NCBI GenBank assembly: GCA_015061665.1
Contig: SUWC01000002.1
Coordinates: forward strand, 5,227 to 69,226
Reading direction: 5' to 3'
Length of the DNA: 64,000 nucleotides
Source: Lentisphaerota bacterium
GTDB lineage: Bacteria; Verrucomicrobiota; Kiritimatiellia; RFP12; UBA1067
Positions within the stretch are counted from its first letter, which is position 1. Each line of letters opens with the position of its first letter. The notes below the pieces were generated by a model, which was not told the DNA's origin, searched no databases, and was given only the letters and a program-made list of their open reading frames with translations. Below, piece by piece: positions 44,022-60,511 of this stretch. Position numbers and translations under genes: made by a program.

Positions 44022-44113
44022 GCTTCACATAGAGGGCGAGCGTTAGCGAAGCCCCGTTCCTTCCACATCATCTTGTGCTTCTCCCGCCCCGTAACACATC
44101 ATGCTGTGTGGTG

Positions 44114-44520: not shown

Positions 44521-44533
44521 TAGAGTCTCGCTA

Positions 44534-44562: not shown

Positions 44563-44595
44563 ATAGCTAATGAATGCTGATTAGGGCTGCAGAAA

Positions 44596-44835
44596 ATGAC
44601 AAAGACATTTAGAGCTCTTCGGATGGAAGACGAAAAGGAAGACTATTCCTGGGCTTTGGCCCTTGACGACTCAGAGCGCCTGAAAATCGCGACAAAGCTT
44701 GTCTGCGACCTTTGGTCGGCGGCGCACAACGGGTCTCCGTTCCCGCCTATGAACCGAACAGTCTATAGCTATATACCTGTTGCCGCAAAGAACGCAGAGT
44801 GCGCAGAGAATTTAACCACGAATTACACGAAATGA
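44596..44835 (+). CDS. Small hypothetical protein (79 aa)
   Basis: The ORF lies downstream of a good promoter. No domain was recognised. The pattern F..L..EDE..DY.....L...ERL resembles small proteins often seen beside toxin-antitoxin genes. Confidence 0.45.
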   Translation: MTKTFRALRMEDEKEDYSWALALDDSERLKIATKLVCDLWSAAHNGSPFPPMNRTVYSYIPVAAKNAECAENLTTNYTK

Positions 44836-44842
44836 CAATAGC

Positions 44843-45126
44843 CGTGTAGAACGTGTAGAGCGTGTAGAGTTTTCAGACAAGATTAACAGGATTTGCAGGA
44901 TTGAGAAGTTGGCTTGTAATCGACAGAATGTGAATTGCAGGGGGTCCGTCGCTCCGCGACGGACCATGGATAGTGAAAGAATGTTAATGAGTGCCGACAG
45001 AACCATGGAGACGCGGCATCTTGCCGCGTCAAGGACTGAGCAATTGAACACTCTAATTAATGGCGCCTGCGGCGCGACCACGAATAAACACGAACCGCTG
45101 TGATCTGCGTTGCGACATTTAGCGAC
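44843..45126 (+). repeat. Island repeat family, long copy 1 (3x 9-nt iterons, CAGGATT module, three hairpins)
   Basis: Iterons CGTGTAGAA/CGTGTAGAG/CGTGTAGAG lie at 44843-44869. Hairpin stems are at 44943-44965 (10-bp stem), 45010-45030 (9-bp stem) and 45063-45075 (5-bp stem). The core (about 44930-45073) is almost identical to 49397-49553. Confidence 0.9.
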
Positions 45127-45136
45127 TGTCTCGCTA

Positions 45137-45165
45137 TTGAGCTAAACGCCCAAAAATGGTATGAT
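45137..45165 (+). promoter_or_regulatory. Sigma70-like promoter (TTGAGC - 17 nt - TGgTATGAT)
   Basis: It is a duplicate of the 44534 promoter module and lies 41 nt upstream of ATG 45206. Confidence 0.55.
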
Positions 45166-45205
45166 ATTTATATAACGTAGTGAGGCACAGTATTAATTTG
45201 AAGAT

Positions 45206-45397
45206 ATGGCGGAACTAGACGACAGATTCTCGGAAGAGGCGAAGCTGCTTGCGCGGCTTGCGCCCAAGGCAAGCATGGAGGCTGTTCGCGCGGCCTGGGC
45301 GCGCGGCTTGTCAGTGACTGTTCTCGAGAACGGCAAGATCGTCAGCATCGCGCCTGACGGCACGCGGACGTTTGTCAAGGAGCTTCAGCCGCTATGA
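45206..45397 (+). CDS. Small antitoxin-like protein (63 aa)
   Basis: It overlaps (ATGA) the start of a P-loop zeta/COG4185-like toxin fragment. A small upstream partner is typical for such modules. Confidence 0.45.
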   Translation: MAELDDRFSEEAKLLARLAPKASMEAVRAAWARGLSVTVLENGKIVSIAPDGTRTFVKELQPL

Positions 45398-45552
45398 CAA
45401 AGCGTTTCAGAATGATCGCCGGCCCCAATGGATCCGGCAAGTCTACCCTTGCCGGCCTGCTGCGTCGGGACTACGCCGTCAACTTCTATACTATGCTTAA
45501 TGCCGACGACTTCGTTCCTTGGTCAGATTGCAAATGTGGAGGTGTCCCATGA
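45394..45552 (+). pseudogene. Truncated zeta-toxin/COG4185-like P-loop kinase (only 52 codons remain)
   Basis: My own translation is MTKRFRMIAGPNGSGKSTLAGLLRRDYAVNFYTMLNADDF..., which has a Walker A motif and then stops after 52 codons. Full-length relatives are about 200 aa. Confidence 0.6.
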
Positions 45553-45776
45553 GTGAGGCGAAGGCAGCGGAAATCGCCGAGTTGGCGGACATGATATTGA
45601 ACGGCTATGCCGTGACAAGGGATGGCGAGAATTTCAAGGTAGTAAACCTTCGCACCGGCAAGGCCGCGTACATAATGTCTTCAGGCGAGTTGAGCGAGAC
45701 TAACATGGATGATGTCGAGTCTGAGATCGCCGTCCGCATCGTGAATGAAAACCGCAGATACATTTGCGCAGCCTGA
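45549..45776 (+). CDS. Small hypothetical protein (75 aa)
   Basis: ATG 45549 (Met11 of ORF 45519) overlaps the stop of the toxin fragment (ATGA). No domain was recognised. Confidence 0.4.
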   Translation: MSEAKAAEIAELADMILNGYAVTRDGENFKVVNLRTGKAAYIMSSGELSETNMDDVESEIAVRIVNENRRYICAA

Positions 45777-45780
45777 GAAC

Positions 45781-45960
45781 GTGTAGAAGTTTCAGGCAGG
45801 ATTAACAGGATAGATAAGTAGCTTGTTGTCTCATGATTGTGAATTTCAGGGGGTCCGCGCGCCTGATTTCTCCGTCCCTTTAGTCCCGTCTGTCCCTTGT
45901 GTCCCGTTAACCTGAAATTGAACAGACAGGATTAACAAGATTTACAGGATTGAGAATAGC
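45781..45960 (+). repeat. Island repeat family, variant copy (iteron, CAGGATT modules, GTCCC x4 at 9-nt spacing)
   Basis: GTGTAGAAGTTTCAGGCAGGATTAACAGGAT begins 5 nt after the stop at 45776. The GAATTTCAGG...CCTGAAATTG inverted pair encloses ccGTCCCtttaGTCCCgtctGTCCCttgtGTCCCg. The copy ends with ACAGGATTAACAAGATTTACAGGATTGAGAA. Confidence 0.8.
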
Positions 45961-45965
45961 CATTG

Positions 45966-45995
45966 TTGAAGTACTGAGGTTGGATATGGTATAAT
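45966..45995 (+). promoter_or_regulatory. Sigma70-like promoter (TTGAAG - 18 nt - TGgTATAAT)
   Basis: The -35 is at 45966-45971 and the extended -10 has TATAAT at 45990-45995. It lies 20 nt upstream of ATG 46015. Confidence 0.55.
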
Positions 45996-46014
45996 TTATG
46001 CGAAAGGAAAATTT

Positions 46015-46203
46015 ATGCGAGTGCTGACAAAAGAACAATATGACGAGATCCGCAGCTCAAAAGTGTATCAGATGATCATGAACGAGCCGCCGCCGGACCA
46101 TACTGCTCTGAACAGGGATGCCGAAGCCTTTGCAAAGTGGATTGCGCGTATTCATAAAAAAGAGCGCAAAAGCATGTTCGAGCCCTCAATGGAGCGTGTA
46201 TGA
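46015..46203 (+). CDS. Small protein, putative antitoxin partner of the GNAT toxin (62 aa)
   Basis: Its stop overlaps the GNAT gene start (ATGA). It does not look like the canonical DUF1778/RHH partner. Confidence 0.45.
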   Translation: MRVLTKEQYDEIRSSKVYQMIMNEPPPDHTALNRDAEAFAKWIARIHKKERKSMFEPSMERV

Positions 46204-46790
46204 AGTTCATTGAGCCAGGTACTGGCGAATTCACGTTGGAGCATTTGACTGATTCTGAAGAGAATCGGAGGCTTATTTGTAATTTCGCGTCCGGCAACAA
46301 CGCGTTCGGACTGGAACAGTATTTGAAAGATCTGGCATTGGAAGATGAACATCTTTGGGAGAGCCGTACTTATCTCGTCAAGGATTCGTTCACAAGAGAT
46401 TTAGCATGCTACTTTTCGCTCAGGACATGTTTGGTTCCTCTTTCAATTGGGAATGGCAAATTCTTTACTATACCGGGTGTTGAGTTGGCTAATTTTGCCG
46501 TAAATGAGGCGTATAGGCAAGCCGAAAGGGAAAAAGGGCGAGTGACGAAGAAGATTGGTGCCTATGTGTTTTCCCAGTTCATCCTTCCAATCTCAAGGCA
46601 TGTGGCTGAATTTGTCGGAGCGAAGTGGTTGTGCATTTATGCGATCCCCGAGGCGAAGTTGCTGGAGTATTATAGCCGACTTGGGTTTAGGCGTCTCGAC
46701 AGATTGCAGGAAAATTTTGTATATGGGCATGTGAAGCCGGAGTACGACCAGAATTGCATCTTCATGTATCAAAGTATTAAAACCGCTTGA
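46200..46790 (+). CDS. GNAT-family acetyltransferase, TacT-like toxin architecture
   Basis: 196 aa. N-terminal F.SGNNAFGLEQYLKDLALEDE, then LACYFSL, IPGVELANFAVNEAYRQ and WLCIYAIPEAKLLEYYSRLGFRRL match the layout of TA-type GNAT toxins. Confidence 0.6.
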   Translation: MKFIEPGTGEFTLEHLTDSEENRRLICNFASGNNAFGLEQYLKDLALEDEHLWESRTYLVKDSFTRDLACYFSLRTCLVPLSIGNGKFFTIPGVELANFAVNEAYRQAEREKGRVTKKIGAYVFSQFILPISRHVAEFVGAKWLCIYAIPEAKLLEYYSRLGFRRLDRLQENFVYGHVKPEYDQNCIFMYQSIKTA

Positions 46791-46845
46791 GTCTCCTGTT
46801 TTACCGCCGCCCGCGCTTCGCACGGGAATGTAAACGAGGGTAACT

Positions 46846-47517
46846 TTGGCGGTTGCTTTCGCTATCGGGAGTCTCGGTGTTTGGGAGAAAATCTCAAAAA
46901 TGCGATTCTCCAGAACTCCAAAACTCCCAGCAGCGAAAGCAATAACAGAAAACATCAATCTACTTATGAAATCATCAGTCGAAATCACTCTAAAATCACT
47001 CTCGCTCACCTCTATTCCTGAAAAGGCATTGCTAATCTCCCGCAACCTTCTCACCGTCGAGATGATCTGGCCTAAGGTTGGTACGCCGAGGAAGTCCGCG
47101 ACGCGGCAGATCACGATGAAGAAGGGTAAGTGCGACTTCACCGCCGAGCCGTGGGCAAAGCGCGTGCTTTTCCGCGAAGACATCGACGGACACACGGCGT
47201 TCACGGTTTCCATCGCCGAGCCGGTGACGATGCAGAAACTTCATCGTTTGCTGCAGCTGACGGCAAAGGCGGCGCTTAAGGAAGGTGCGGACATGATTGA
47301 CGCTGCGCTTGTGTCGTATGGCGACATTGCTGCTGCGCCGGTGGATGCGCTTGCGACGATGGTTGCCGAAAAGGACGCGCCGCGCATCATCGTGCAGGGT
47401 ATTCTTGACTATGACGAACTCCCGGCGGCTGGCGAGGAAAAGGAAGTCGTTATACCCCTCACCCGCCCGAAACTTGGCAAATCGGTCGGTAGTCTCACAC
47501 TCGTTGTTAAAGGTTAA
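46846..47517 (+). CDS. Hypothetical protein (start uncertain; up to 223 aa)
   Basis: The track ORF starts at a TTG. In-frame ATGs lie at 46900 and 46966. The stop overlaps the next gene start by 1 nt (TAATG), which supports a real operon. No domain was recognised. Confidence 0.45.
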   Translation: MAVAFAIGSLGVWEKISKMRFSRTPKLPAAKAITENINLLMKSSVEITLKSLSLTSIPEKALLISRNLLTVEMIWPKVGTPRKSATRQITMKKGKCDFTAEPWAKRVLFREDIDGHTAFTVSIAEPVTMQKLHRLLQLTAKAALKEGADMIDAALVSYGDIAAAPVDALATMVAEKDAPRIIVQGILDYDELPAAGEEKEVVIPLTRPKLGKSVGSLTLVVKG

Positions 47518-48050
47518 TGAAACGCATCACCACACTCGGTAAAGTCCTTCAGGTTCTCACTTTCTACAAGTGGGCGTTTGGGGATTTGACCGATCAGGAC
47601 TCAGATGTCGGTCTGCTCGCCGAGTATCTTGTCGGCGATATCCTTAACTGCCTGCCGCCGACTCGCAAGGTGCAAGCGCCGTTCGACCTTATCATGAAGG
47701 ATGGCACGACAATTGAGGTTAAGGCCACGACGCACAAGCGTGAAAAGAAAGGCCGCACACCTTACTATTGCTGGGATGTCTCCACTCAGTCCGAAATGCT
47801 GAAGGGGAACCGTCCGATTGCCGACTACTGGGTGTTCTTGATTGCTTCTTTCCCGCGCGAGACCTCACGTACTCCGCGCGTCGTGCAGGCATTCGACACA
47901 AAGAACTGGAAGTGCTATGTCGTCTCCGGCGAAAAGCTCCGCACGGCGGGTTGCACAAAGTATGTCTCCGAATCGACTTTGAAAAGGCTTGATGTTGTGG
48001 CGTTCTCCCTTGGGGAGCTGAAGAAGAGGCTTAACCACGAAATACACTAA
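47517..48050 (+). CDS. PD-(D/E)xK-like nuclease-fold protein (177 aa)
   Basis: Motif order is GLLAEYLVGD (E), APFDLIM (D), then TTIEVKAT (E-x-K), with spacing typical of restriction-endonuclease-like folds. The call rests on motifs only. Confidence 0.45.
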   Translation: MKRITTLGKVLQVLTFYKWAFGDLTDQDSDVGLLAEYLVGDILNCLPPTRKVQAPFDLIMKDGTTIEVKATTHKREKKGRTPYYCWDVSTQSEMLKGNRPIADYWVFLIASFPRETSRTPRVVQAFDTKNWKCYVVSGEKLRTAGCTKYVSESTLKRLDVVAFSLGELKKRLNHEIH

Positions 48051-48060
48051 ATACACGAAA

Positions 48061-48387
48061 GTGGTAAACACGGCTAAAATCTTTCTCGCACTAACGGCTC
48101 TCGCGCTATCCGGTTGCGTGAGCTTGGACCTGGCGAGTGCAGCCGATGCGGACGAGAACTCGAAGATTCAGTTCCGTGACGTCTCGAGCGCCTACTGCTG
48201 GGACTGGGGAAAGTCCGCGCAGGAGCTGCTGCACGAACACCTCCAGAGCGCGGACGGAACTGTAGACGAACGCGGGATGCAGAGCATCGTCATATCGCAG
48301 ATCTGGTGGGAAGTGCTCGCCACATTGGGCTCGCTCGGAATCGCCAAGCCGTCCGAATACACCATCGTGCTGGAGGCTGGTGAATGA
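48061..48387 (+). CDS. Small lipoprotein (108 aa)
   Basis: GTG start. Signal peptide with lipobox (IFLALTALALSGC). The stop overlaps the DUF2235 gene start (ATGA). Confidence 0.55.
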   Translation: MVNTAKIFLALTALALSGCVSLDLASAADADENSKIQFRDVSSAYCWDWGKSAQELLHEHLQSADGTVDERGMQSIVISQIWWEVLATLGSLGIAKPSEYTIVLEAGE

Positions 48388-49346
48388 AGCTAGCGGTGTT
48401 TTTCGACGGAACTTGGAACGAGCCCTCGACGCGAACGAACGTCTGGAAGCTCAAGCAGGACCTCGACTGCTCCGCAGCCACGGACACGAAGGCGACCTAC
48501 ATCGAGGGAATCGGAACCGTGAAGGGCAAGGAACTCCTCGCCGGTGCGTTCGCGACAGATCTGCCGCGTCAGCTCGGACTCGGCTACAGCTGGCTCGTGA
48601 AGAAGATCCTGAACGCTCCGAAGGACGAGAAGATCTCCATCTACCTCTTCGGCTTCAGCCGCGGCGGATACATCGCGCACGCGCTCAGCTGGCTCCTCTC
48701 CGAAGTCGGAGTTCCTACTCGCTTCGCCTCAGCCATTCCGATTGCCGAGGCATACGCGAAGAAGGATGCGAAGGCGCTGGATAAACTTAAGAAGGGCGGG
48801 GTACTATCGTCGCCGAAAATCGCCATGCTCGGACTCTGGGACGCGGTGTCGTCTCCGCACGACTTCTATCGCGGCTACCACGACGGACTCCGCGCGGGAT
48901 CAGTCGCGCGCATCTACCACGCGATGGCTACGGACGAAAGGCGCAAGCTCTACGGCGCGATGCAGTACGCAAGCGACAGGGCGGTGGTGCAGCGGTGGTT
49001 CTCTGGGGTGCACATGGATGTCGGCGGTGGGTATCCGGAGTGCGAACTCTCGGACGTAACGCTCGACTGGATGAAGCGCAAGGCGGTCCGATGCGGGTTA
49101 TCCTTCAAGACGCCGCTCCCGAAGCGTCCGCGCAGCTACGACTTCTCAACGCTCGCGGCGGTACACAACGAAGAGACGCCGCTCGATCCGATCAGGAAGC
49201 GCACCTTCCACGCAGGCCAGTCAATCGACCGCTCCGTCCGCGACCGCGTGAAGACCTCCCCGGGCTACTTCCCCGCCATCGCCGAAGTTCCCTCGCTTCT
49301 CATCGACTGGCTGAAAGGGCTTGTTTCCGGTAGGGCGATCGTGTAG
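48384..49346 (+). CDS. DUF2235-family alpha/beta hydrolase (Tle1-like lipase fold)
   Basis: 320 aa with N-terminal VFFDGTWN, the nucleophile elbow GFSRGG, and later LGLWDAVSS and HMDVGGGY blocks, as in DUF2235/T6SS Tle1-type phospholipases. Confidence 0.7.
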   Translation: MKLAVFFDGTWNEPSTRTNVWKLKQDLDCSAATDTKATYIEGIGTVKGKELLAGAFATDLPRQLGLGYSWLVKKILNAPKDEKISIYLFGFSRGGYIAHALSWLLSEVGVPTRFASAIPIAEAYAKKDAKALDKLKKGGVLSSPKIAMLGLWDAVSSPHDFYRGYHDGLRAGSVARIYHAMATDERRKLYGAMQYASDRAVVQRWFSGVHMDVGGGYPECELSDVTLDWMKRKAVRCGLSFKTPLPKRPRSYDFSTLAAVHNEETPLDPIRKRTFHAGQSIDRSVRDRVKTSPGYFPAIAEVPSLLIDWLKGLVSGRAIV

Positions 49347-49746
49347 ATGTTTTGGACAGAATTTACAGAATTGAGAGTGGTTGTAGTCGAATGATTGCGA
49401 ATTGCAGGGGGTCCGTCGCTCCGCGACGGACCATGGATAGTGAAAGAATGTTAATGAGTGCCGCAAGAACCATGGAGACGTGGCTTCCAGTCGCGTCAAG
49501 GACTGCACAATTGAACACTCTAATTAATGGCGCCTTTGGCGCGACCACGAAAACCGGCGAATCGATGAGTCGCCTGACGGCGACTTGGCGCTGTCGTGTC
49601 CGCACCCAGCCTCGGCTTCGCCAGGCGGTGCGTACACGCCATCGCCAACCCTGCGGGGCACATCGCTTCGCCGGACACGAATGCCCGTCTTCGCGGGACA
49701 CGAATAAACACGAACCGCTGTGAACCGCGTTGCGATACTCAGCGAC
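49341..49746 (+). repeat. Island repeat family, long copy 2 (with a ~147-nt GC-rich insertion)
   Basis: A GTGTAGA iteron overlaps the stop at 49344-49346. Hairpin stems lie at 49410-49432 and 49477-49497. Relative to copy 1, an extra segment (about 49552-49698) sits between ...GCGACCACGAA and CACGAATAAACACGAACCGCTGTGA. Confidence 0.9.
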
Positions 49747-49842
49747 GAACAGCAGGATTGAACTGGTAGGGACGGCGTTCTACCGCCGTCCGCATGGTAG
49801 GGCGGGCGCGCCGCGCACGCCGCAAAGAGCGATGATTATAGC

Positions 49843-49905
49843 CGAGTAGAACATGTAGAACGTATAGAAGTTTTAGACAAGAATTTACAGGATTGAGAAG
49901 TTGCC
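49843..49905 (+). repeat. Island repeat family, 5' module only (3 degenerate 9-nt iterons and a CAGGATTGAGAAG module)
   Basis: CGAGTAGAA/CATGTAGAA/CGTATAGAA is followed by GTTTTAGACAAGAATTTACAGGATTGAGAAGTTG. It marks the junction to the most AT-rich DNA. Confidence 0.8.
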
Positions 49906-50123
49906 AGGTGATTGTAAATTGCTGCTGCTGAGATGAATTGAGATTGCCGATAAGGTGGGGTGAAGATTATGAAGAGTGTGGGAATGGTTAGCGATAACAG
50001 TCTGGCCGCGGTTCGGCGTTGGAGGCTAGGTTGGGAAAGTGTCCACATAGTATTGCGGGCTATTCGCAATCGCATTGAGTCAAACCATAAATAAAGTGCT
50101 TTAAGTGGTCTTTTGGCATTAGA

Positions 50124-50729
50124 ATGGATTATAATAGAACCATAGGCGAAACGGTGCAGGAGCGGATTAAAAGTATCCGCAGTGTCAATGATTTTACCGC
50201 AAATGTAATCAACCTTATAGAGACAAATAGTAGTAATAACATAGAGGAGATACTGAAAGAGTATCGATATGCAACAGAGTTGTTGTTGACGTTTGTTGAA
50301 GATCCAAGTGCAATACAAAGGTTAAAAGAGGTTGAATTACACGTCCAAAAGGCCTGTAAAATGGCCTTGAATAAGGCATTTGAAATTTTTTATGATCGAT
50401 ATGAGAACTATTATGAGAGATTAACCAGAATTAGTAGGTTCACAAATGTTGCTAGGAAGTCGCTTCTTCGGTTGCGAACTGAAATGGATGCTGCAAGAAT
50501 TTATGAAAAGGTGGCGGCGATTGAGCAGATAGAGGATTTTGATGAATATACGAAGCAAGCTGTTGTTATACAGAAAAGTATAATAGAGATTTCGAGATTA
50601 ACAGAAATCGCGCTTGTTGAGTGTGAGAAATTTGTAAAAGATAGAAGAAAAAGAGCTGTTCTCCTAATACTAGCAATCATACTTGGCGGCGGTATCGGTA
50701 TAGCAGTGGCCGTTTTAATTGGCTGGTAG
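50124..50729 (+). CDS. Tail-anchored helical protein A (201 aa)
   Basis: A predicted all-helical soluble domain is followed by a single C-terminal TM (AVLLILAIILGGGIGIAVAVLIGW). No family was recognised. Confidence 0.55.
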   Translation: MDYNRTIGETVQERIKSIRSVNDFTANVINLIETNSSNNIEEILKEYRYATELLLTFVEDPSAIQRLKEVELHVQKACKMALNKAFEIFYDRYENYYERLTRISRFTNVARKSLLRLRTEMDAARIYEKVAAIEQIEDFDEYTKQAVVIQKSIIEISRLTEIALVECEKFVKDRRKRAVLLILAIILGGGIGIAVAVLIGW

Positions 50730-50735
50730 TTTGCA

Positions 50736-51323
50736 ATGAAAAAGAAAGTGCGATCTATCTATCTTATAATAAGCGAAACTCTTTCGTTTATTAGGTTTGA
50801 GAGCACTGATAAAAAATTGGTAGCCAGATTAACTGCTTTGGTGCAGAACATTGTTACGTCGCAATGGGTCAATGCAATTGATGGAAATTATAGTGTAATC
50901 TATTCTCGCCTAGTGCCGATAGCCGTTGAGTTGTTATTTTATAAATTGAAGATGCTGATTGAGATTGTTGACATGTATAAGCGCGAATATGTAGGCCATG
51001 CAACAAAAGTAGCACCTTTTGTTAAGAATTTTGAGGACATTGAACCGGCTTTGGAAAAAGGTCGATCTTTTATTAATAAAATTTTAAATAAACCTGATGT
51101 GTGGGATGGGACAGTTTACGATGAATTGGGGTTGTTAATTAATGAAATAACTTGTTGCAAGAATAACTTACAGAAACAATATGGGATGTGGCGATACGAA
51201 GTCAAAGCAGACAAAAGAGCGAGTTTGTTAGTTCCTGTGTCGGCAAGCGTGCTGTCAGCTTTAATATTCGCCGCATTAGTCAAGTTGTGGAAAATCGTAC
51301 AAATATATATGCCGAATTGCTAG
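50736..51323 (+). CDS. Tail-anchored helical protein B (195 aa)
   Basis: It lies 6 nt after protein A and has the same architecture: a helical domain and a C-terminal TM (ASLLVPVSASVLSALIFAALVKLW). No family was recognised. Confidence 0.55.
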   Translation: MKKKVRSIYLIISETLSFIRFESTDKKLVARLTALVQNIVTSQWVNAIDGNYSVIYSRLVPIAVELLFYKLKMLIEIVDMYKREYVGHATKVAPFVKNFEDIEPALEKGRSFINKILNKPDVWDGTVYDELGLLINEITCCKNNLQKQYGMWRYEVKADKRASLLVPVSASVLSALIFAALVKLWKIVQIYMPNC

Positions 51324-51361
51324 GAAATGGGAATGTTCTAGCCCGCACAACAACTACGCAT

Positions 51362-51481
51362 GCTGTTGGCGTTGCGTTGGATGATTGAGCGGATGAGAGG
51401 TAATGCGAGACGGCGAATTAACGGTTGAGTGCTGGGATTGCGAGCTGATGGCAAATATGAGAGGAGAGAGAAATGGCGAAT
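51362..51481 (+). repeat. Direct repeat, left copy (~120 bp, polysaccharide-gene leader plus ATGGCGAAT)
   Basis: GGCGTTG.GTTGGATGATTGAGCGGATGA...CGGCGAATTA.CGGTTGAGTGCTG...GATGGCAAATATGAGAGGAGAGAGAAATGGCGAAT matches 56851-56966 with a few substitutions and a 4-nt indel. Confidence 0.9.
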
Positions 51482-51598
51482 GTGATTACATACGGAACGT
51501 TTGATTGGTTTCATGTCGTGCATCTGCGGCTGCTGCAGCGGCCACGCAGCGTAGTGCGAAAAGGACTTCTTTACCATGGGGTCCATTTTACTCTCTGA
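51473..51598 (+). pseudogene. N-terminal fragment of a glycerol-3-phosphate cytidylyltransferase-like gene
   Basis: My own translation is MANVITYGTFDWFHVVHLRLLQRP.... It matches the TagD N-terminus (ITYGTFD..H.GH..LL) for about 23 residues, then diverges and stops after 41 aa. Compare the intact tagD at 61720. Confidence 0.65.
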
Positions 51599-51715
51599 CC
51601 CTTTTACTCTCTTGGCAGGTTGTAGTGCTTGCTGCTGTTATTGGCGCTACAATTATTAGCACGGCTATTATTATAGGACATTTTCTTCCACGCAAAATAT
51701 AAAGAAGGGCGTTAT

Positions 51716-52162
51716 ATGGCCAAGGCTATCGAAGAAATGCTAAACTTTAAAGGTTATTTTCTGGAGGATCATGCTGATATGATCCCAGAAAATGTATGTG
51801 GAGTTTATTGTGCGTATGCATGCTCTTTAAATGCAGAAACAAATAAATGGGTGGGCACCGATATCGTCTATTTCGGCAAATCGGGTGGCGATGTTCGTGG
51901 ACGAGTAAATGATCATAAAAAAGTTGGCGACAATGCGCGTAGAACATTGACGAATGGTGAGAAATTGCTTTATTGCTACGCAAAGACCGATAATGAGATT
52001 GAATGTGAGAAAGCATTAGTTGCTGCGCACAAAGATTTGCCACGGTTGGCAAATACTCTATTAACTGACGGCTATGTTGGGCCAAAGATTTCCTTGACAA
52101 TAAAGGGAGATTGTTATGGGATTAAATCTGGAATCGAATTTGAGGCTAACAAAGAAGACTAG
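51716..52162 (+). CDS. Stand-alone GIY-YIG nuclease-domain protein (148 aa)
   Basis: The motif order GVYCAY (GIY) ... IVYFGKSGGDVRGRVNDH (YIG, Arg, His) ... ECEKALV (Glu) ... ANTL (Asn) fits the GIY-YIG catalytic core. Confidence 0.6.
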   Translation: MAKAIEEMLNFKGYFLEDHADMIPENVCGVYCAYACSLNAETNKWVGTDIVYFGKSGGDVRGRVNDHKKVGDNARRTLTNGEKLLYCYAKTDNEIECEKALVAAHKDLPRLANTLLTDGYVGPKISLTIKGDCYGIKSGIEFEANKED

Positions 52163-52481: not shown

Positions 52482-52856
52482 ATGAATATTGAAATGTCAT
52501 CTGGAGATTATAAGATTATTGCTTCAGGATTTGCTATGTCAGTTGCAAATAATCCGTTGGATATATATTTAAAGGACGATGCTGGTGCTCAGCTTTATCA
52601 CATAAGGTTTAGATTTATAAGTGACAATCAGAATCCAAATTCTGTGATTCGTTCAAATGGAATAGATAATGGAGCAGGTGTTGAACTTTTGCTTGTAAAC
52701 TTTGAGCATTCTCTGGGTCGTGGAATAGTAACACCAATGGCGATAGCATCAAGACAGGGACAAGATGCCTTATTCTTAACATTTACAGTTAATACATATA
52801 GAGGGGTTGAAGCGAAACAGGTTGCTTTCACTATTTATACACGAGAAGTGAGGTGA
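52482..52856 (+). CDS. Small soluble hypothetical protein (124 aa)
   Basis: AAAGGAAG lies upstream of the ATG. The sequence looks beta-rich, with no TM helix and no recognisable motif. Confidence 0.5.
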   Translation: MNIEMSSGDYKIIASGFAMSVANNPLDIYLKDDAGAQLYHIRFRFISDNQNPNSVIRSNGIDNGAGVELLLVNFEHSLGRGIVTPMAIASRQGQDALFLTFTVNTYRGVEAKQVAFTIYTREVR

Positions 52857-52862
52857 TGTATC

Positions 52863-53282
52863 ATGCCGCACGAGGATGTTGAGGGTAGGATGAGCGGAAC
52901 TGGGTTTGAGACTAAATCTGTTGGTAGCTCTGTTTCGGTGGTGACTTATGAAGTTTCAAGCCGTTTGGAGGAAGAGCACATATTCCCAACAAAGCACAAG
53001 GTAGAATGCGCATTTAGGGAGTATGAACGAAACAAAGATAGTACGGATTGGTTATCATGGTTGGGACTTTCTGTCGGAGTCCTAGTTTCAATACTAACCA
53101 GTGAAACTAAAGATATATTTGGTGCATCCGCAAAATTCTGGTCTGCAGTTCTATATGCGTTCTTAATTCTATCAATTATTATGTTAGGTAAGTCGGCGTA
53201 TAAGAGGTTTAGGGTTAGGAAAAAACTAACATTTACATACTTTTATTCGGGTCTTAAAGAGCGTGATGATTATGGGACTTGA
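52863..53282 (+). CDS. Two-TM membrane protein (139 aa)
   Basis: It starts 6 nt after the previous stop and is preceded by GAGGTGA. TM1 is WLSWLGLSVGVLVSILT and TM2 is FWSAVLYAFLILSIIMLG. It has a basic C-terminal tail. Confidence 0.5.
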   Translation: MPHEDVEGRMSGTGFETKSVGSSVSVVTYEVSSRLEEEHIFPTKHKVECAFREYERNKDSTDWLSWLGLSVGVLVSILTSETKDIFGASAKFWSAVLYAFLILSIIMLGKSAYKRFRVRKKLTFTYFYSGLKERDDYGT

Positions 53283-53418
53283 TGCCGATGAAGTGGGCAT
53301 TATTGTTATGATGAGAAGCGTGTTGGTGAAGCCATGTCAAGAGGAGATATGGACTGTGCGAGAATAAGCTCTATTGCACAAGTGAATCGAATACACAGTT
53401 TGTGATTTGATTGGTAAA

Positions 53419-53583
53419 ATGACAGCGAGTCGCCGCATATTCCTTAATATAGTTGCCACATACGGGCGGTCGCTGTATGCGCTGGTGTGCGGACTGTTTA
53501 TTAGCTGGTGGGTGTTGGCGGCGTTGGGTAAGGAGGATTTCGGACTGTATGGCGTTGTTGGCGGGGTGATGGTGGTTCTCTAG
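53419..53583 (+). pseudogene. N-terminal fragment of a Wzx-type flippase gene
   Basis: My own translation is MTASRRIFLNIVATYGRSLYALVCGLFISWWVLAALGKEDFGLYGVVGGVMVVL*. It parallels the N-terminus of the intact flippase at 58988 (..GLYTSRVVLRVLGVEDYGLYNVIGGII..) and is cut after 54 aa. Confidence 0.65.
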
Positions 53584-53615
53584 TGTGCTTAGTTAATTAC
53601 TATGGAGGTTGACTT

Positions 53616-54317
53616 ATGAGCGAACAGAATAATCTTAAGGTCGGTGAAATAAATAAAACATATGTGTACGGTGCCGTGAGATGTGTTGGTGCATTGAAAC
53701 CTGTTTTTGATGCCCAGCAGAATGGTTTCCTTCCTCCTGAATTGACTGTAGCGGGGACAGGATTTTGGATTAAGGACTTTGGTTGCTTTGTTACATGCGC
53801 GCATGTTGTAGATCAATATTTGGGACGAACGATTGATGAGTCTGGAATGTTAGTCGTTGGTGGAAACGGACAGTCGTATGAACGAGCAACAATTGGGGTT
53901 ATTGATTATCAACATGATTTGGCGTTGCTTAATATTAACTTTACTCACAAGGATGATTTTAAAAAGGAAGTAATGACAGGACTTTCAATTGCGGGTAATG
54001 ATCCTAGTATTGGGCAGGGTATTGCATACGCAGGATTCCCATTTGGCAATAAATTGTTAGATGCTAATCATACGCCCACATATTCTGAAGGTGTTGTAGG
54101 AAAGGCAATCCTTCATACTCTTAGGCGTACGGAGATTCAGTTTACTGGGCCTGTCGTTGGTGGGTATTCTGGTTCTCCGGTAGTATTAAGGGAATCTCCA
54201 GATAAATTGGTAGGTGTCCTGTCAAACGGCCCTATGGATCATGGAAACACGGGTAACATTTTTAAAGGGATTCATTGGAAACACGTATTGGCACTGTGTG
54301 AAGTGTCTGGAAAATAG
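53616..54317 (+). CDS. Cytoplasmic trypsin-like (S1/Trypsin_2-type) serine protease (233 aa)
   Basis: The catalytic triad blocks appear in order: TCAHVV (His), HDLALLNI (Asp) and GGYSGSPVV (Ser). There is no signal peptide. GGAGG lies 8 nt upstream of the ATG. Confidence 0.75.
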   Translation: MSEQNNLKVGEINKTYVYGAVRCVGALKPVFDAQQNGFLPPELTVAGTGFWIKDFGCFVTCAHVVDQYLGRTIDESGMLVVGGNGQSYERATIGVIDYQHDLALLNINFTHKDDFKKEVMTGLSIAGNDPSIGQGIAYAGFPFGNKLLDANHTPTYSEGVVGKAILHTLRRTEIQFTGPVVGGYSGSPVVLRESPDKLVGVLSNGPMDHGNTGNIFKGIHWKHVLALCEVSGK

Positions 54318-54343
54318 TTTTAACGTTAAAGAGGCATAAGGTT

Positions 54344-55768
54344 ATGACTTTTACAGTAAAGAATGTTGGACCAATTACGGATATAAGCATAAAACTGAAC
54401 AAGTTAACGATGCTTTGTGGTAAGAATAATTCCGGCAAAACATATTTACTGTATGCGATGCATAGCCTTTTGTCGTATATAAGACGAAGAGTGACATATG
54501 AGTTTTCAGATGCCGATAAAGAAAATTTTTGTAATACAGGGAGATGCTCAATTAGCGTGAGGGATATTGTTCAATCATACGCAAGCATGTTTAATGAAGG
54601 ATTTAAAATTACCTATTCTGAAGTTTTGGCTAGGGATCTTGCTTTACCAAAGTCGAAAACAGAATCGAGTGAAGTTTTCTTGTCCCTAGATAAAGGTATA
54701 AATGAGGTGATTTTAGAATTGATCACTTCCGAGAGTAGGAGTGTTCGTGGTAGATACACTAAGGATTTCCGATTGTGTATAGGTCATGATGAAAACAGTG
54801 AAAATGTAGTGTGTGAGTATCTTCCCCAGCAAACAATGGATTCTCAAGGTGCGGATCCGTTATTTCCGTTGCAAAAGTCAGCATTTGAAGCCGTGGAGTG
54901 GTTATTCCCTATCTTTGTTCAGCGGTTTCTTTTAAGACCATTTATCATAACATGTGAGCGGAATGGTGTTGCAATGTTTGGCGCAGAGTTGCGATTGTTT
55001 AATTCGTATATTTTTGATGCAGGCAATGTAGAGTTTGAGAGATTACAGAAGTTGAAGCAGAAGTTCGAGTTCAAGGGGTATCCACTACCGATTAGGAGAG
55101 AGCTTGAGTTTGCTATGAATGTTCGTGATATAGAACAGCGAACAGGTGCTTTGGCTAAAAATGATACGCTCCTCATATCCTTGGCTGGGCTGACAGGAGG
55201 AAGTTACTCGACATCTGATGACATGTCTGGACGGGTTAGTTTCATCCCGACAGAAGAATCTCAAAAAAGTCTGGCTATTTCAGAATGCTCAAGTTCTGTT
55301 AGATCTTTAGTGGAACTTGATTATTATATTCGTCACATGTCAGGGAAAAATGACTTGTTGATTATTGATGAGCCAGAATTGGATTTACATCCTTCAAATC
55401 AGCGCAAATTTGCCAGATTGATAGCAAGAATTGTTAACGCAGGGACGCGCGTGCTTGTTGCTACGCATAGCGATCATTTCGCGCGAGAGATTAACAGTCT
55501 AATTGCGGCTTACAGTGAAAGGGATGATGTTCGTCGACGGAATATGAAGATATTACAGTGTAATCAGGACGAGTTGATGTCATCAAATGATGTCTCATGT
55601 TATGTTATAACACGAGATTCCATAACACCTATGGAAATTGAGCCAGGGTTTGGCTATCCCATTAAAAGTTTTGATGATGACATCCAGAGGTTTAATGATG
55701 CGTACAATGAATTGAGGTCTAGCATCGTACATGATGAGGAGTCAGAAGACTGTTACGGAGATAGCTGA
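54344..55768 (+). CDS. ABC-type (AAA_15/AAA_21-like) ATPase (474 aa)
   Basis: Walker A GKNNSGKT at residues 26-33, a long helical insert, a signature-like ISECSSSVRSL, Walker B LLIIDEPELDLHP and H-loop VLVATHSDHF. It lies 26 nt after the protease gene. Confidence 0.8.
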   Translation: MTFTVKNVGPITDISIKLNKLTMLCGKNNSGKTYLLYAMHSLLSYIRRRVTYEFSDADKENFCNTGRCSISVRDIVQSYASMFNEGFKITYSEVLARDLALPKSKTESSEVFLSLDKGINEVILELITSESRSVRGRYTKDFRLCIGHDENSENVVCEYLPQQTMDSQGADPLFPLQKSAFEAVEWLFPIFVQRFLLRPFIITCERNGVAMFGAELRLFNSYIFDAGNVEFERLQKLKQKFEFKGYPLPIRRELEFAMNVRDIEQRTGALAKNDTLLISLAGLTGGSYSTSDDMSGRVSFIPTEESQKSLAISECSSSVRSLVELDYYIRHMSGKNDLLIIDEPELDLHPSNQRKFARLIARIVNAGTRVLVATHSDHFAREINSLIAAYSERDDVRRRNMKILQCNQDELMSSNDVSCYVITRDSITPMEIEPGFGYPIKSFDDDIQRFNDAYNELRSSIVHDEESEDCYGDS

Positions 55769-55772
55769 TTAT

Positions 55773-56447
55773 ATGAAGAAAGAATTAGAGTGCCTTAAAG
55801 AACTGCTGGCGCAAAAAGTTATGCGGTTTAATAAAGGGCTATGTAAACAATGTTACTACCCTGATTCTGTGCCGATAGTATTTGATGTCTCGAACGGGCA
55901 TTTTGTTCTTAAAGAATGTGAAAAAGCACTCCTTAATCATATACCATTGTGTAACCTTGGAGAAGATACACTGATCTTGAAGCCAGATAATTTTAATATT
56001 AGATTTTACAAAACTGGCACGTATAACAAAGCATGCGATTATCTCGTGCTCACGTATGACAAGGCCAACAAGCCTCATGCTGTTTTTGTAGACCTAAAGA
56101 CGGATATATATGACCAGCCCAATCCCGAAACCTGCGAGTTTAAGACCAATTCTGAGCGAGATGCTCTGTGCGGATTGCAATTTTGCGGTGCCCGGTCTCT
56201 ATATAAGTTGTTGGCACTGATGACAAGAACGTTAAGTAAATGCCGAGCGTTTGACTCATATCAAGAACATTATTGGGTTCTGTATAAGAATTATTTAAAT
56301 GGATGTGGTGTTATTGGTGCGGTGCCGACCTTAACCGAGGGGAGTGGAGATGCGGTAAAAACATTTCGCAGGTCTAGCTTACTGTCATCGATTTATGCTC
56401 GTAAAGTGAAGAATAATGAGTCAATTGATATTGCGTGTTTGTTATGA
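55773..56447 (+). CDS. Nuclease-like protein (224 aa from ATG 55773; the track ORF starts at 55731)
   Basis: ATG 55773 lies 4 nt after the ATPase stop. Two motif readings are possible. One is PD-(D/E)xK-like (..CDYLVLTYDKANKPHAVFVDLKTD). The other is a degenerate N-terminal HNH-like pattern (CKQC ... GH ... LLNHIPLCN). No firm family assignment was made. Confidence 0.5.
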   Translation: MKKELECLKELLAQKVMRFNKGLCKQCYYPDSVPIVFDVSNGHFVLKECEKALLNHIPLCNLGEDTLILKPDNFNIRFYKTGTYNKACDYLVLTYDKANKPHAVFVDLKTDIYDQPNPETCEFKTNSERDALCGLQFCGARSLYKLLALMTRTLSKCRAFDSYQEHYWVLYKNYLNGCGVIGAVPTLTEGSGDAVKTFRRSSLLSSIYARKVKNNESIDIACLL

Positions 56448-56469
56448 CAGAATACTGAGAGTGCAAACG

Positions 56470-56745
56470 ATGAACTATCAGATCAAAAATATATTCGATT
56501 TCTTTGTCATTCGCACGGATAATTGGACATGTGCTGAATTTGAAAAAGCCATTCTTCGGGATTATCCTAATGAAGGGTATCCTTTTGTCAAAGAACTAAT
56601 CCTGGAGGCGGATGAATTGGGCTATTGGCCTAAGGTTATAGAGCGATACATTAGGACAAATTACATAGCGCATGGTAATGTCTCTTCAGAACTTGATCGA
56701 ATAGCGAATCGCATACTTGGTGCAGATTATAAACCAAGCATATAA
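56470..56745 (+). CDS. Small hypothetical protein (91 aa), last gene of the four-gene operon
   Basis: ATG 56470 (Met19 of ORF 56416) lies 22 nt after the previous stop. It is helical-looking and acidic, with no recognisable motif. Confidence 0.45.
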   Translation: MNYQIKNIFDFFVIRTDNWTCAEFEKAILRDYPNEGYPFVKELILEADELGYWPKVIERYIRTNYIAHGNVSSELDRIANRILGADYKPSI

Positions 56746-56782
56746 CGCACGTTGAGCCACTGACAATTAATGGCGATGCAAG

Positions 56783-56917
56783 ATGAAAACATTTGGTATA
56801 GTTAGCTATGACATCTACTGCAACTTTACGAACTATGGTTCGGCGTAGCAGGGCTGGGCGTTGGGTTGGATGATTGAGCGGATGACAAGCAGTGTCGGGC
56901 GGCGAATTAGCGGTTGA
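56783..56917 (+). pseudogene. N-terminal fragment of a polysaccharide pyruvyl transferase-like gene, with an in-frame stop
   Basis: My own translation is MKTFGIVSYDIYCNFTNYGSA*QGWALGWMIERMTSSVGRRISG*. The NYGS.LQ.WAL pattern is typical of pyruvyl-transferase N-termini. A TAG interrupts it at 56846-56848. Confidence 0.5.
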
Positions 56918-56966
56918 GTGCTGCGGCAGCAGATGGCAAATATGAGAGGAGAGAGAAATGGCGAAT
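56851..56966 (+). repeat. Direct repeat, right copy (~116 bp)
   Basis: See the left copy at 51362-51481. This copy ends with the first three codons (ATGGCGAAT) of the intact FdtA-like gene. Confidence 0.9.
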
Positions 56967-57872
56967 ATGAAAACATTAGACGATGTAAAAATAATACAGC
57001 TGCCAAAGATAGCGGATCCTCGTGGCAACTTGTCTATCATTGAGCAGATAAAGCATATACCGTTTGAGATACGGCGAGCTCACTGGATATATGATGTCCC
57101 TGGAGGTGTAGATCGTGGTGGTCACGCTTTCAAGGAGACAGAGGAATTTATAGTGGCTCTGTCAGGGAGTTTCGATGTCGTTGTTGCTGATGGCGAACAG
57201 AAAAAGACTTTCTCATTGAACAGATCTTACTTCGGGTTATATGTGCCGAGTGGTATGTGGCGGACGATGGCCAATTTCTCAACCAATTCACTCGCATTGG
57301 TGCTTTCGTCAACTGAATACAATGAAAATGATTATGTGTCTGATTACGAAGAGTACAAGTGTTGGCGGAGTGATCCCTCAAATGTTCCCACAAAATCGGA
57401 TGCCAGAACTTCGCTGAAGGTGAATGAGCCGACAAATAGGCACATGTTGATAGAGGGAAGGAGCGTTTTTGATTGTTCGCTATGCGAATTGAATAAGATG
57501 CACGACATAGAAGGCAATCTGACATTCATGTACGAGAATGTTCATGTGCCGTTCCCTATCAATCGTGTATTTTATTCTTACGATATTCCGGGTGGCGAGG
57601 ATAGAGGCGCACATGCCCACAAGAAATGCCATCAGTTCTTGATAGCTGCCAGCGGCTCGTTTGAGGTTTTGTTGGATGATGGAGTAAATAAGCGCACGGT
57701 GCTTCTGAATCGACCGTTTTATGGACTTCATGTTCCACCAGGCATCTGGGCATCTGAACAAGGATTCTCTTCGGGCAGCATTTGCTTGGTGCTGGCCAGT
57801 CATGGTTATGAAGAAGATGATTACATTCGGAGTTATGACGACTATTTGGAATATCTAAAGGCAAAAAGATAA
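56958..57872 (+). CDS. Tandem double-cupin FdtA/QdtA(WxcM)-like sugar 3,4-ketoisomerase
   Basis: 304 aa with two homologous halves. The first is ..DPRGNLSIIE..IPFEIRRAHWIYDVPGGVDRGGHAFKETEEFIVALSGSF.. and the second is ..EGNLTFMYE..VPFPINRVFYSYDIPGGEDRGAHAHKKCHQFLIAASGSF... Confidence 0.75.
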   Translation: MANMKTLDDVKIIQLPKIADPRGNLSIIEQIKHIPFEIRRAHWIYDVPGGVDRGGHAFKETEEFIVALSGSFDVVVADGEQKKTFSLNRSYFGLYVPSGMWRTMANFSTNSLALVLSSTEYNENDYVSDYEEYKCWRSDPSNVPTKSDARTSLKVNEPTNRHMLIEGRSVFDCSLCELNKMHDIEGNLTFMYENVHVPFPINRVFYSYDIPGGEDRGAHAHKKCHQFLIAASGSFEVLLDDGVNKRTVLLNRPFYGLHVPPGIWASEQGFSSGSICLVLASHGYEEDDYIRSYDDYLEYLKAKR

Positions 57873-58987: not shown

Positions 58988-60511
58988 ATGTCAGATAATT
59001 CTCGTATAGCTAAGAATACGATATTCATGTATATGCGCATGGCCATCACCATGCTGGTGGGGCTGTACACATCGCGTGTGGTGCTTCGTGTCCTTGGTGT
59101 AGAGGATTATGGTCTGTACAATGTTATTGGGGGCATTATCGCACTGTTCGCGGTGCTGAACAATGCCCTAATGAATTCCACATCCCGATTTGTAACTGTT
59201 TCATTGGCAAAGGGAATAATTGCGGAGACTCGTCAGACTTTCAACATGGCGTTTTTGATGCACTTTGCTGTAGCATTGTTCTTAATAGTGATAGGTGAGA
59301 CCGTCGGCCTATGGTATCTTCATAACAAGTTGGTAATCCCCGTTGGTCGTGAGTTCGCAGCAGGCTGGCTATATCAGTTTACAATTATTACTGCGGTATT
59401 AGGGACGATAAATGTTCCATACAATGCCTGTATCGTAGCGCACGAGAAAATAAATGTTTTCGCAATATTACAGGTGATAGATGCCGTGTTGAAGTTGGGC
59501 ATCGTTTATGTTATCCAGGTTGCACCATATGACAAGCTGATATATTATGCTGTGCTGATGCTGTTGGTAATTGTGTTTAATTTTCTATTTAACTACATCT
59601 ACTGCCAGAGGAGATTTCCAGAAGTCAAGTTTGTGTTTTACTGGAGTCGCAATAGATTCAAGGAGGTTCTGAAGTTTATTGGCTGGGCGCTAGTGGGCAA
59701 CTTCTCCAACATGTTCTACACACAGGGTATCAATCTGATGCTTAATGCCTTTTGTGGCCCAGCAGTCAATGCGGCTCGTGGTATAGCGGTTCAGGTGCAG
59801 GGTGTTGTTGCGCAGATGGCAAACAATGTCCAGACGGCTATAAATCCACAGATACTTAAAACATATGCGGTGAACGACTTGGATAGAATGCACATGTTGA
59901 TTTGTGCCAGCTCGAGGTATTGCTACTATTTGCTGTTTTTGTTCTCATTGCCGATTATGCTTGAGGCAAATTTCATTCTGCATCTTTGGCTAGGTGTAGT
60001 GCCGGAACATACAGTTAACTTCATTCGATTGACCTTGATGACAGTATTACTGGACGCATTTATTAATCCGATGTTTACGGCTAATCTTGCTTCTGGACGG
60101 CTCAATCTTTACTATATACCTGTATCTATGATATCAGTGTCTTTCATGTTCATAACATATTTTGCAATCAAATATACCTTGATGCCAGAAAGTACATTCT
60201 TGTGCTACTTGGCAATGGTAGCTTTGGGCGTAATTATACGTGTATTTGTAATGCGGAAGCAAGTTAAATTAAACCCAATTCTTTATATTAAGACGGCCAT
60301 ATTGCCTGCAATTGTGGTAACACTATTAGCGTCAGCTTTGCCTGTAGCATCTCACTTGTTGGTACAAGGGAATGTTGCACGCCTTTTCGTGACGGGCATA
60401 ATATCTGTTGTTTCAACAGCAATTGTGGTTTGTTATGTTGGTATTACAAAGCTAGAACGGCAATTTGTAATCCAATTTGTTAAAAATAAATTGCATAGAC
60501 AGTTCGTTTGA
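58988..60511 (+). CDS. wzx: Wzx-type polysaccharide flippase (MOP superfamily)
   Basis: 507 aa, about 12-14 TM segments, with an N-terminal KNTIFMY..MLVGLYTSRVVLRVLGVEDYGLYNV block. Confidence 0.8.
   Translation: MSDNSRIAKNTIFMYMRMAITMLVGLYTSRVVLRVLGVEDYGLYNVIGGIIALFAVLNNALMNSTSRFVTVSLAKGIIAETRQTFNMAFLMHFAVALFLIVIGETVGLWYLHNKLVIPVGREFAAGWLYQFTIITAVLGTINVPYNACIVAHEKINVFAILQVIDAVLKLGIVYVIQVAPYDKLIYYAVLMLLVIVFNFLFNYIYCQRRFPEVKFVFYWSRNRFKEVLKFIGWALVGNFSNMFYTQGINLMLNAFCGPAVNAARGIAVQVQGVVAQMANNVQTAINPQILKTYAVNDLDRMHMLICASSRYCYYLLFLFSLPIMLEANFILHLWLGVVPEHTVNFIRLTLMTVLLDAFINPMFTANLASGRLNLYYIPVSMISVSFMFITYFAIKYTLMPESTFLCYLAMVALGVIIRVFVMRKQVKLNPILYIKTAILPAIVVTLLASALPVASHLLVQGNVARLFVTGIISVVSTAIVVCYVGITKLERQFVIQFVKNKLHRQFV

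Follow-up and report, generated by a model that had tools for sequence, protein, structure and literature searches.

The window analysed here is a stretch of 64,000 nucleotides (nt) from a Lentisphaerota bacterium (GenBank assembly GCA_015061665.1, contig SUWC01000002.1, positions 5,227 to 69,226 of the forward strand), and the subject of this work is a run of four closely packed genes within it, g1 to g4. As listed in Table 1, they encode in order a trypsin-like serine protease, an ABC ATPase (component A), a putative nuclease (component B), and a small protein of 91 amino acids (aa). A first-pass annotation, made from the letters of the DNA, had presented them as a candidate undescribed defence system of four parts. 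In the explanation considered probable here, g2 and g3 are a divergent pair of the anti-phage family PD-T4-4/PDC-M47, g1 is a portable protease cassette on the 5' side of the pair, and g4 is a passenger.

The open reading frames (ORFs) are present on the plus strand exactly as they had been annotated, with gaps of 26 nt between g1 and g2, 4 nt between g2 and g3, and 22 nt between g3 and g4 when internal ATG codons are used as the starts of the last two genes. These internal starts, at 55773 and 56470, are correct, since the homologues of g3 are nearly all 224 aa and the four homologues of g4 are all 91 aa in length. Shine-Dalgarno-like motifs were found before three of the genes: GGAGG 8 nt 5' of the g1 ATG, AGAGG before g2, and GGAG before g3, within the 3' end of g2. 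Because Pfam and PADLOC match g1 and g2 strongly and all four have conserved homologues elsewhere, they are regarded as genuine genes and not as chance ORFs. A promoter and terminator scan of positions 53000-57200 gave counts no different from those in shuffled sequence, and none of the three intergenic gaps held a terminator-like site.

Table 1. Genes of the operon, its upstream neighbour, and related loci (positions in the window for the first five rows, in the respective loci for the last)
Feature	Position	Strand	Description
g1	53616-54317	+	233 aa; stand-alone cytoplasmic S1 (trypsin-like) serine protease; facultative 5' accessory cassette
g2	54344-55768	+	474 aa; component A, ABC ATPase, PD-T4-4_A/PDC-M47A family
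g3	55773-56447	+	224 aa from internal ATG (238 aa from 55731); component B, putative divergent PD-(D/E)xK (restriction-endonuclease-fold) nuclease
g4	56470-56745	+	91 aa from internal ATG (109 aa from 56416); predicted all-helical orphan, apparent passenger
Wzx-type flippase N-terminal stub	53419-53583	+	54 aa; context, not a component
L001/L002			protease 86% identical to g1; A 80% to g2; B 56% to g3
L144			protease 80% identical to g1; A 66% to g2; B 61% to g3
L008			protease a 27-aa C-terminal stub at the contig edge, 93% identical to g1; A 80%; B 72%
Proteases nested in type I restriction-modification operons	about 7000-7690 in most		L014, L020, L022, L023, L025, L026, L028, L037, L040, L043, L044, L045, L047

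The product of g2 matches the PADLOC profile PD-T4-4_A, which represents a validated anti-phage ATPase family, with an E value of 2e-89 and from end to end (residues 1-458 of 474, profile positions 1-455 of 460). The profile PDC-M47A is matched with 2e-76, and in Pfam the families AAA_15 (7e-25) and AAA_21 (2e-14) were found. PADLOC also matches g2 to AriA, GajA, Old, and PtuA, but at far lower significance and over part of its length only. In an alignment of 8 A proteins, the Walker A motif (G26-T33, with K32), the Walker B motif (D342-E343), and the H-loop (H375) are invariant. It can be seen that g2 is a full-length ABC ATPase of the PD-T4-4_A/PDC-M47A family. The first-pass annotation had read it as an ABC-like ATPase of the kind found in Septu, PARIS, AbiL, and Gabija-like immunity, and g2 is indeed an ABC-type ATPase of the OLD, Septu, PARIS, and Gabija kind; the motifs that it quoted are present and invariant, and its placement of the locus among defence genes agrees with the full-length match. 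Septu itself was tried as a candidate and rejected: the PtuA matches of g2 are partial and reach about 1e-12 to 4e-13, against 2e-89 for PD-T4-4_A, the NCBIfam PtuA model scores g2 at 27.6 bits versus a cut-off of 500, and g3 has no HNH match.

For the comparison of neighbourhoods, 86 loci with distant homologues of A (25-34% identity) were taken. In nearly all of them an ORF of about 185 aa abuts the stop of A, and among 68 such downstream sequences that were scanned, PDC-M47B was matched by 63 and PD-T4-4_B by 49. Since the same downstream ORFs match both profiles, the two names PD-T4-4 and PDC-M47 cover one family. A functional selection for resistance to phage T4 yielded PD-T4-4 (Escherichia coli ECOR58; Vassallo et al. 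2022), which sits in an element resembling an integrative and conjugative element (PMC9519451). It has been classed as a PD-(D/E)xK nuclease with a P-loop nucleoside triphosphatase, the two forming higher-order complexes (bioRxiv 10.1101/2025.07.10.664194). The window resembles this family in having an ABC ATPase of about 460-475 aa followed by an abutting small PD-(D/E)xK nuclease, and the core E...D...(D/E)xK...Q is common to g3 and to the B proteins of the family. It differs in that g3 exceeds canonical B by about 40 aa and has diverged strongly, in that a protease gene precedes A, and in that a 91-aa gene follows B.

The assignment of g3 requires several lines of evidence. Within its own family, residues E48, D89, D107-x-K109, and Q136 are invariant, and these give the pattern of a PD-(D/E)xK nuclease. 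In a joint alignment of g3 with 67 ORFs downstream of A homologues, D89 never varies, and the conservation of E48, K109, and Q136 is 90% or more; g3 carries DxK, whereas most of the partner B proteins carry ExK. When the g3 family was compared by hhalign, profile against profile, with 41 canonical B proteins missed by the hidden Markov model (HMM) of g3, the probability was 98.5% and the E value 2.5e-15, with the catalytic columns aligned. The family is small: only 16 close homologues exist among 5.8 billion clustered proteins, and a profile search of 1.84 billion representatives returned 93 cluster representatives. Members of the g3 subfamily measure 224 aa compared to about 185 aa for canonical B, the difference of about 40 aa lying in extra N- and C-terminal segments.

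Other results weigh against this assignment. The PADLOC profile PDC-M47B is matched by g3 only weakly (4e-6 and 3e-4, residues 35-111 covered), and 10 of 14 members of the g3 family match it; the PD-T4-4_B HMM gives no match at E<=1. Although the AlphaFold2 (AF2) model of g3 is of good quality, with a mean predicted local distance difference test score (pLDDT) of 85.5, a Foldseek search of it against the PDB found nothing significant, the best match being BsmI at an E value of 0.04. Since the model has no significant PDB neighbour, the call of a nuclease fold rests on the motifs and the profile-profile homology. The weak and non-significant matches include several other restriction endonucleases, namely EndoMS, BsaWI, MspI, OkrAI, EcoO109I, and AvaII, which fits the published description of the nuclease partner in an A+B system as a novel variant of the restriction-enzyme (PD-(D/E)xK) fold (PMC12137116). 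Pfam holds no family for g3. On the motifs and the alignment of profiles, g3 appears to be a rare, divergent homologue of the PD-T4-4_B/PDC-M47B nuclease. The first-pass annotation had proposed the same kind of nuclease effector from a D...(D)xK arrangement, and its proposal is upheld by the invariant D89 and D107-x-K109 and by the homology to canonical B. Its second suggestion, a weak CxxC...H...N...H pattern, has to be abandoned; an HNH or zinc-finger identity finds no HNH match, and the cysteine pair is kept solely within the close clade and lost in more distant homologues of g3.

Taken together, the core of the operon seems to be a divergent copy of a known two-gene anti-phage family, related to WonAB, and the ATPase-nuclease pair is thus not the undescribed core that it had been taken for. 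The pair is autonomous. Neither the protease nor g4 was found within 5 kb of A in any of the 86 distant loci, and the plasmid pKPN6 carries A and B alone, as the sole cargo of a 4.26-kb ColE1-type plasmid of Klebsiella pneumoniae (NC_009652.1, 1622-3680; L149). The other genes of pKPN6 concern replication control only (Rop and a helix-turn-helix protein). Its B protein, of 210 aa, matches the canonical B HMM with 1.7e-18, and its A and B are annotated as 'AAA family ATPase' and 'hypothetical protein'. Altogether 9 plasmids with A homologues were found, and A+B relatives also occur on prophage-like contigs and small plasmids.

The first gene, g1, matches Pfam Trypsin_2 (2e-12) as a bare domain without any extra domain. 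Its residues His63, Asp101, and Ser185 are invariant among 43 homologues, and no N-terminal hydrophobic segment can be read from the sequence. The triad corresponds to the motifs TCAHVV, HDLALL, and GYSGSPVV that the first-pass annotation had quoted, so that its description of an intact intracellular trypsin-like protease is well supported by the residues. At the level of domains, PADLOC matches were obtained to RT-Protease_XI (6e-15), PDC-M35A, and LmuA (4e-6; profile positions 17-183 of 425). The protease parts of RT-Protease_XI and PDC-M35A are matched by g1 and by all 43 aligned relatives, and that of LmuA by 36. The protease variants of Lamassu LmuA, the type XI retron with its reverse transcriptase (RT) and protease, and the proteolytic modules described in PMC12642450 all place a trypsin-like S1 domain in an immune context, as the window does. 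Unlike g1, the protease of RT-Protease_XI and LmuA makes up just a portion of a longer profile, and that of the PMC12642450 modules has either a fused sensor or defined effectors as partners. Profile scans found no LmuB, LmuC, RT, metallo-beta-lactamase (MBL), Pepco, or EACC1 partner in the window operon. Lamassu and ABC-3C were rejected as identities for the locus: no LmuB is among the 25 best of the 137 PADLOC matches for g2, and g1 matches only the protease part of one LmuA profile.

Beside the A+B pair, the protease is found in a narrow clade. The order protease-A-B, with gaps of 23-26 nt, recurs in the window, in L001/L002, in L008 (where the protease is a stub), and in L144, and over this range the identity of A falls to 66% (Table 1). 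Considering the close-clade lineages in which the upstream side can be read, the protease lies directly 5' of the ATPase in 4 of 5, and the fifth is L003-5. In neighbour-joining trees of both A and B, L003 nests inside the protease-bearing clade. No remnant of a protease exists in the 349-nt gap upstream of its A gene, and its DNA homology to the window restarts about 20-25 nt before the start of the ATPase. The nesting and the point at which homology restarts suggest that the protease slot is a cassette that was lost or replaced in L003. According to the probable explanation given above, the protease would have been recruited as a co-transcribed 5' cassette in one sub-clade, producing a three-gene variant of the family.

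The close relatives have several neighbours of their own. Just 5' of protease-A-B in L144 (602-2381) there is a second ATPase pair, AAA_21 with DUF4276, and the upstream neighbours in L001 are an AAA_13 ATPase and McrBC; in these other organisms the protease-A-B block therefore lies in defence islands. Downstream of B, a gene of 49-52 aa and a protein of MBL fold follow in L003 (5545-6301), L004 (3539-4295), L005 (2343-3099), and L006 (2179-3541). The MBL-fold protein has weak matches to Anti-Pycsar Apyc1 and Lactamase_B. Proteins of this fold are known as protease-activated effectors and also as anti-defence enzymes. The contig of L006 begins inside A, and its upstream side is unreadable.

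The protease family has a much wider distribution than component B, with 139+ matches versus 16 for the g3 family. Among 36 genome loci with protease homologues at 30-51% identity, none contains A, B, or g4. Instead, in 13 of the 36 genomes a type I restriction-modification (R-M) operon holds the homologue, which is 36-51% identical to g1. These genomes are spread over many phyla, with Patescibacteria, Omnitrophota, Gammaproteobacteria, and Planctomycetia among them. Where the arrangement is cleanest, the genes run hsdM-hsdS-protease-hsdR and either overlap or are separated by 1-10 nt. Other neighbours of the protease are Mrr, GmrSD with an EcoRI methylase, an Eco57I-type methylase with a PLD-SNF2 helicase, a C5 methylase, and a Schlafen-type helicase. 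A search of plasmids for the protease gave no match. In the literature that was searched, nothing relevant turned up on proteases nested in type I R-M, on PDC-M47, or on Trypsin_2 in defence islands, and the placement of the protease within such operons was not found described.

The slot between hsdS and hsdR is also the one occupied by prrC, which is nested in the EcoprrI system. Like prrC, relatives of g1 occupy this position within an R-M operon, and by analogy the placement suggests a role tied to the host system. The proteins themselves are of different kinds, PrrC being an anticodon nuclease fused to an ABC ATPase and g1 a serine protease. Furthermore, g1 of the window is not inside a type I R-M operon; its neighbour, and host system, is the PD-T4-4-like pair.

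Whether g1 is functionally coupled to this pair has to be weighed against the main rival, in which g1 is independent of the pair, whether as a single-gene defence or with some other function, and stands beside it through the clustering of defence genes. Several findings speak for this rival and weigh against the cassette reading. The adjacency of g1 to A+B could be plain defence-island clustering. Only four independent lineages with protease-A-B were found, and all of them come from short metagenomic contigs. The protease is missing from L003-5 (A 84%, B 79%), L011, L012, L013, and the 86 distant loci, and is dispensable family-wide; the A protein of L003-5 is the closest to g2 among the relatives that were taken from other organisms, yet these loci lack the protease even though L003 is nested within the clade. 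A different, conserved module of about 168 aa, about 60 aa, and a protease 60-73% identical to g1 occurs in L145 (6311-7702), L146 (3337-4728), and L147 (1146-2531) without A or B. It lies in islands with SIR2_2, PDDEXK_3, DUF2971, and ORF6N genes, and its two small partners belong to no family. The larger size of the protease family and its many unrelated neighbours also favour independence, as do the published A+B systems, which function without a protease (PMC9519451, PMC12137116). The incongruent identities between the window and L001, 86% for the protease versus 56% for B, suggest shuffling of cassettes. However, the same order and the same short gaps are kept in the four lineages, without a terminator-like site in the g1-g2 gap and over a range of A identity that reaches 66%. 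In addition, the wedging of relatives between hsdS and hsdR, with overlaps or gaps of 1-10 nt, is the pattern of a co-expressed partner and not of a random neighbour. An independent protease is for these reasons a doubtful explanation, although it is the strongest of the rivals.

In another alternative the operon is a zymogen-type module, in which the ATPase senses infection and the protease then cleaves a latent effector, g3 or g4, as occurs in modules with MBL, Pepco, or EACC1 proteins. Proteolysis-gated effectors are widespread and are tied to trypsin-like proteases with diverse sensors, ABC-3C ATPases among them (PMC12642450), and the additional terminal segments of the g3 subfamily would be in keeping with a latent form. 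The longer form of B is, however, also present in the protease-free L003-5 and L011-13. The g4 protein is not conserved, is all-helical unlike the beta-barrel of Pepco, and matches no family, while the protease has no fusion to a sensor and no known protease-associated effector family is encoded in the operon. A direct identification with the modules of PMC12642450 was likewise rejected: g1 is single-domain, g4 is all-helical, and neither g3 nor g4 belongs to an MBL, alpha/beta-hydrolase, Pepco, or EACC1 family. A zymogen-type arrangement is accordingly regarded as unlikely.

The fourth gene has even fewer relatives. Its four homologues are 73-97% identical, it has no family in Pfam, PADLOC, or NCBIfam, and the AF2 model, a five-helix bundle with a pLDDT of 68.5, gave no informative fold match. 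It is co-oriented with g1-g3 and probably co-transcribed with them. Nevertheless, g4 is absent from every other A+B locus that was compared, and one homologue (P0139, 75% identical) lies among unrelated genes in L148. With so few homologues, one of them in an unrelated context, g4 appears to be a lineage-specific passenger and not a conserved component. These distributions also bear on the view that all four genes are obligate parts of one undescribed four-component system. The tight packing on a single strand is in its favour, and so is the retention of all four genes in the near-identical metagenomic copies L050-L057. Those copies, however, come from the same organism; g4 is missing from all other related loci, the core belongs to a family already described, and the protease is facultative. 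The four-component view is largely refuted by these comparative data and must be considered very improbable. The outcome that the first-pass annotation had named as refuting is thus found for g4 and for the core, and only by half for the protease, which is a recurrent neighbour of A+B in one sub-clade (window, L001/L002, L008, and L144) and not beyond it.

The surroundings of the operon agree with those described in the first-pass annotation. The block from 50 to 64 kb has a guanine-cytosine (GC) content of 38-45%, and the region of the operon one of 38-42%, compared to about 64% across the first 44 kb, and the dead fragments of polysaccharide genes nearby are real. The stub just upstream of g1 (Table 1) is 41% identical over 51 aa (E value 1e-10) to the N-terminus of an intact Wzx-type flippase located 5.4 kb downstream, at 58988-60511. 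Intact WxcM/FdtA, DegT, and Wzx genes lie 3' of the operon. The stub suggests that a polysaccharide gene cluster took up the defence genes, by insertion or by recombination within it. No tRNA exists in the window, and no integrase or transposase match was obtained among the window ORFs scanned against Pfam. That the four genes work for the polysaccharide locus beside them, in the processing or export of proteins for instance, is the least probable reading of all: relatives of the operon do adjoin polysaccharide genes in L001, L144, and L147, and the operon lies between the flippase stub and intact WxcM/DegT/Wzx genes, but g2 matches a validated anti-phage ATPase family over its full length, A+B relatives occur on prophage-like contigs and small plasmids, L001 adjoins McrBC and an AAA_13 ATPase, and the stub indicates insertion into the locus and not membership of it.

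Several additional observations were made around this position. The upstream edge of clusters for polysaccharide or glycan biosynthesis is a recurrent site of protease(-A-B) relatives, as seen at 56958+ in the window and in L001 (9158-16139), L144 (6244-10275), and L147 (5747-9531), and the boundary of such clusters may be a hotspot of gene insertion. Just 5' of the operon, at 52482-53282, there is a DUF6864 protein (124 aa, Pfam 1.5e-19) and, 6 nt later, a 139-aa protein with a C-terminal membrane segment. The latter (52863-53282) has a marginal match to PycTM (E value 0.003), the sole PADLOC match among the upstream orphan genes, and the two genes may be another small two-gene defence candidate. 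At 50124-52162, two neighbouring orphans of about 200 aa each end in a hydrophobic segment and have no detectable relationship to one another; a 148-aa protein near them has a sub-threshold GIY-YIG match (E value 0.05), and none of the three has a PADLOC match. Between the high-GC core, whose final gene encodes a 2-oxoacid:ferredoxin oxidoreductase (42559-43959), and the low-GC block there is a mosaic zone of 46-60% GC (44000-50000). This zone contains a gene with a phospholipase domain like that of the type VI secretion effector Tle1 (48384-49346, 1.4e-38), a truncated P-loop ORF with the motif GPNGSGKST (45394-45552), and several orphans, with no tRNA in it and no integrase or transposase match among the ORFs scanned.

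Returning to the probable explanation of a divergent PD-T4-4/PDC-M47 pair with a protease cassette, the best available experimental model of mechanism is WonAB, from the WASA-1 prophage of Vibrio cholerae, whose organisation is similar to that of PD-T4-4 (PMC12137116). Like the window core, it combines an OLD-type ABC ATPase with a nuclease of variant restriction-endonuclease fold, a likeness taken from its published description; unlike the window operon, it has no dedicated protease gene. WonAB depends on its ATPase motifs and on the lysine of its nuclease, and its abortive infection works through translation arrest, without degradation of the chromosome (PMC12137116). The nuclease, WonB, is an unstable protein that Lon degrades (PMC12137116). 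The target of WonB is probably RNA. By analogy, the ABC ATPase A of the window would probably dimerise and hold and control the small PD-(D/E)xK nuclease B. Infection would then cause the ATPase-dependent complex to release the nuclease activity and halt the infected cell, that is, abortive infection.

The most likely role of g1 would lie in acting on the adjacent nuclease machinery or in working beside it, a proposal for and against which the balance is roughly even. It derives from the tight nesting of the protease family in other immune operons that are built around nucleases, chiefly between hsdS and hsdR. Two forms of this role can be envisaged. In the first, g1 would set the abundance or the activation of the nuclease by proteolysis, as Lon does for WonB. 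In the second, g1 would act as a back-up effector that is set free once the primary system has been blocked, much like PrrC in EcoprrI. Extending either form to the whole family gives the more tentative idea, which we hold possible and not yet probable, of a portable accessory that joins immune operons built on nucleases (type I R-M, other R-M, and PD-T4-4-like) and controls or backs up the nuclease. Such an accessory might be a dedicated protease for restriction alleviation or safety, or a guard effector that is freed when the system is inhibited. In type I R-M, HsdR is kept in check by ClpXP.

These findings imply that the core of the operon would add a rare and highly divergent nuclease subfamily to the systems of PD-T4-4/WonAB type. 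The family is probably under-counted, since the PADLOC profiles used barely detect the g3 subfamily. Apart from the core, a cytoplasmic S1 protease of 230 aa recurs wedged within nuclease-based immune operons in many phyla. Because WonB is checked by Lon and HsdR by ClpXP, a dedicated protease encoded in such operons would be a case in which proteolytic control of an immune nuclease, or a back-up for it, is built into the operon, and one that can be tested directly. If the protease family is indeed a portable accessory, the operon of the window would be a three-component variant of PD-T4-4, and the protease family would represent an unrecognised and widespread class of immune accessory.

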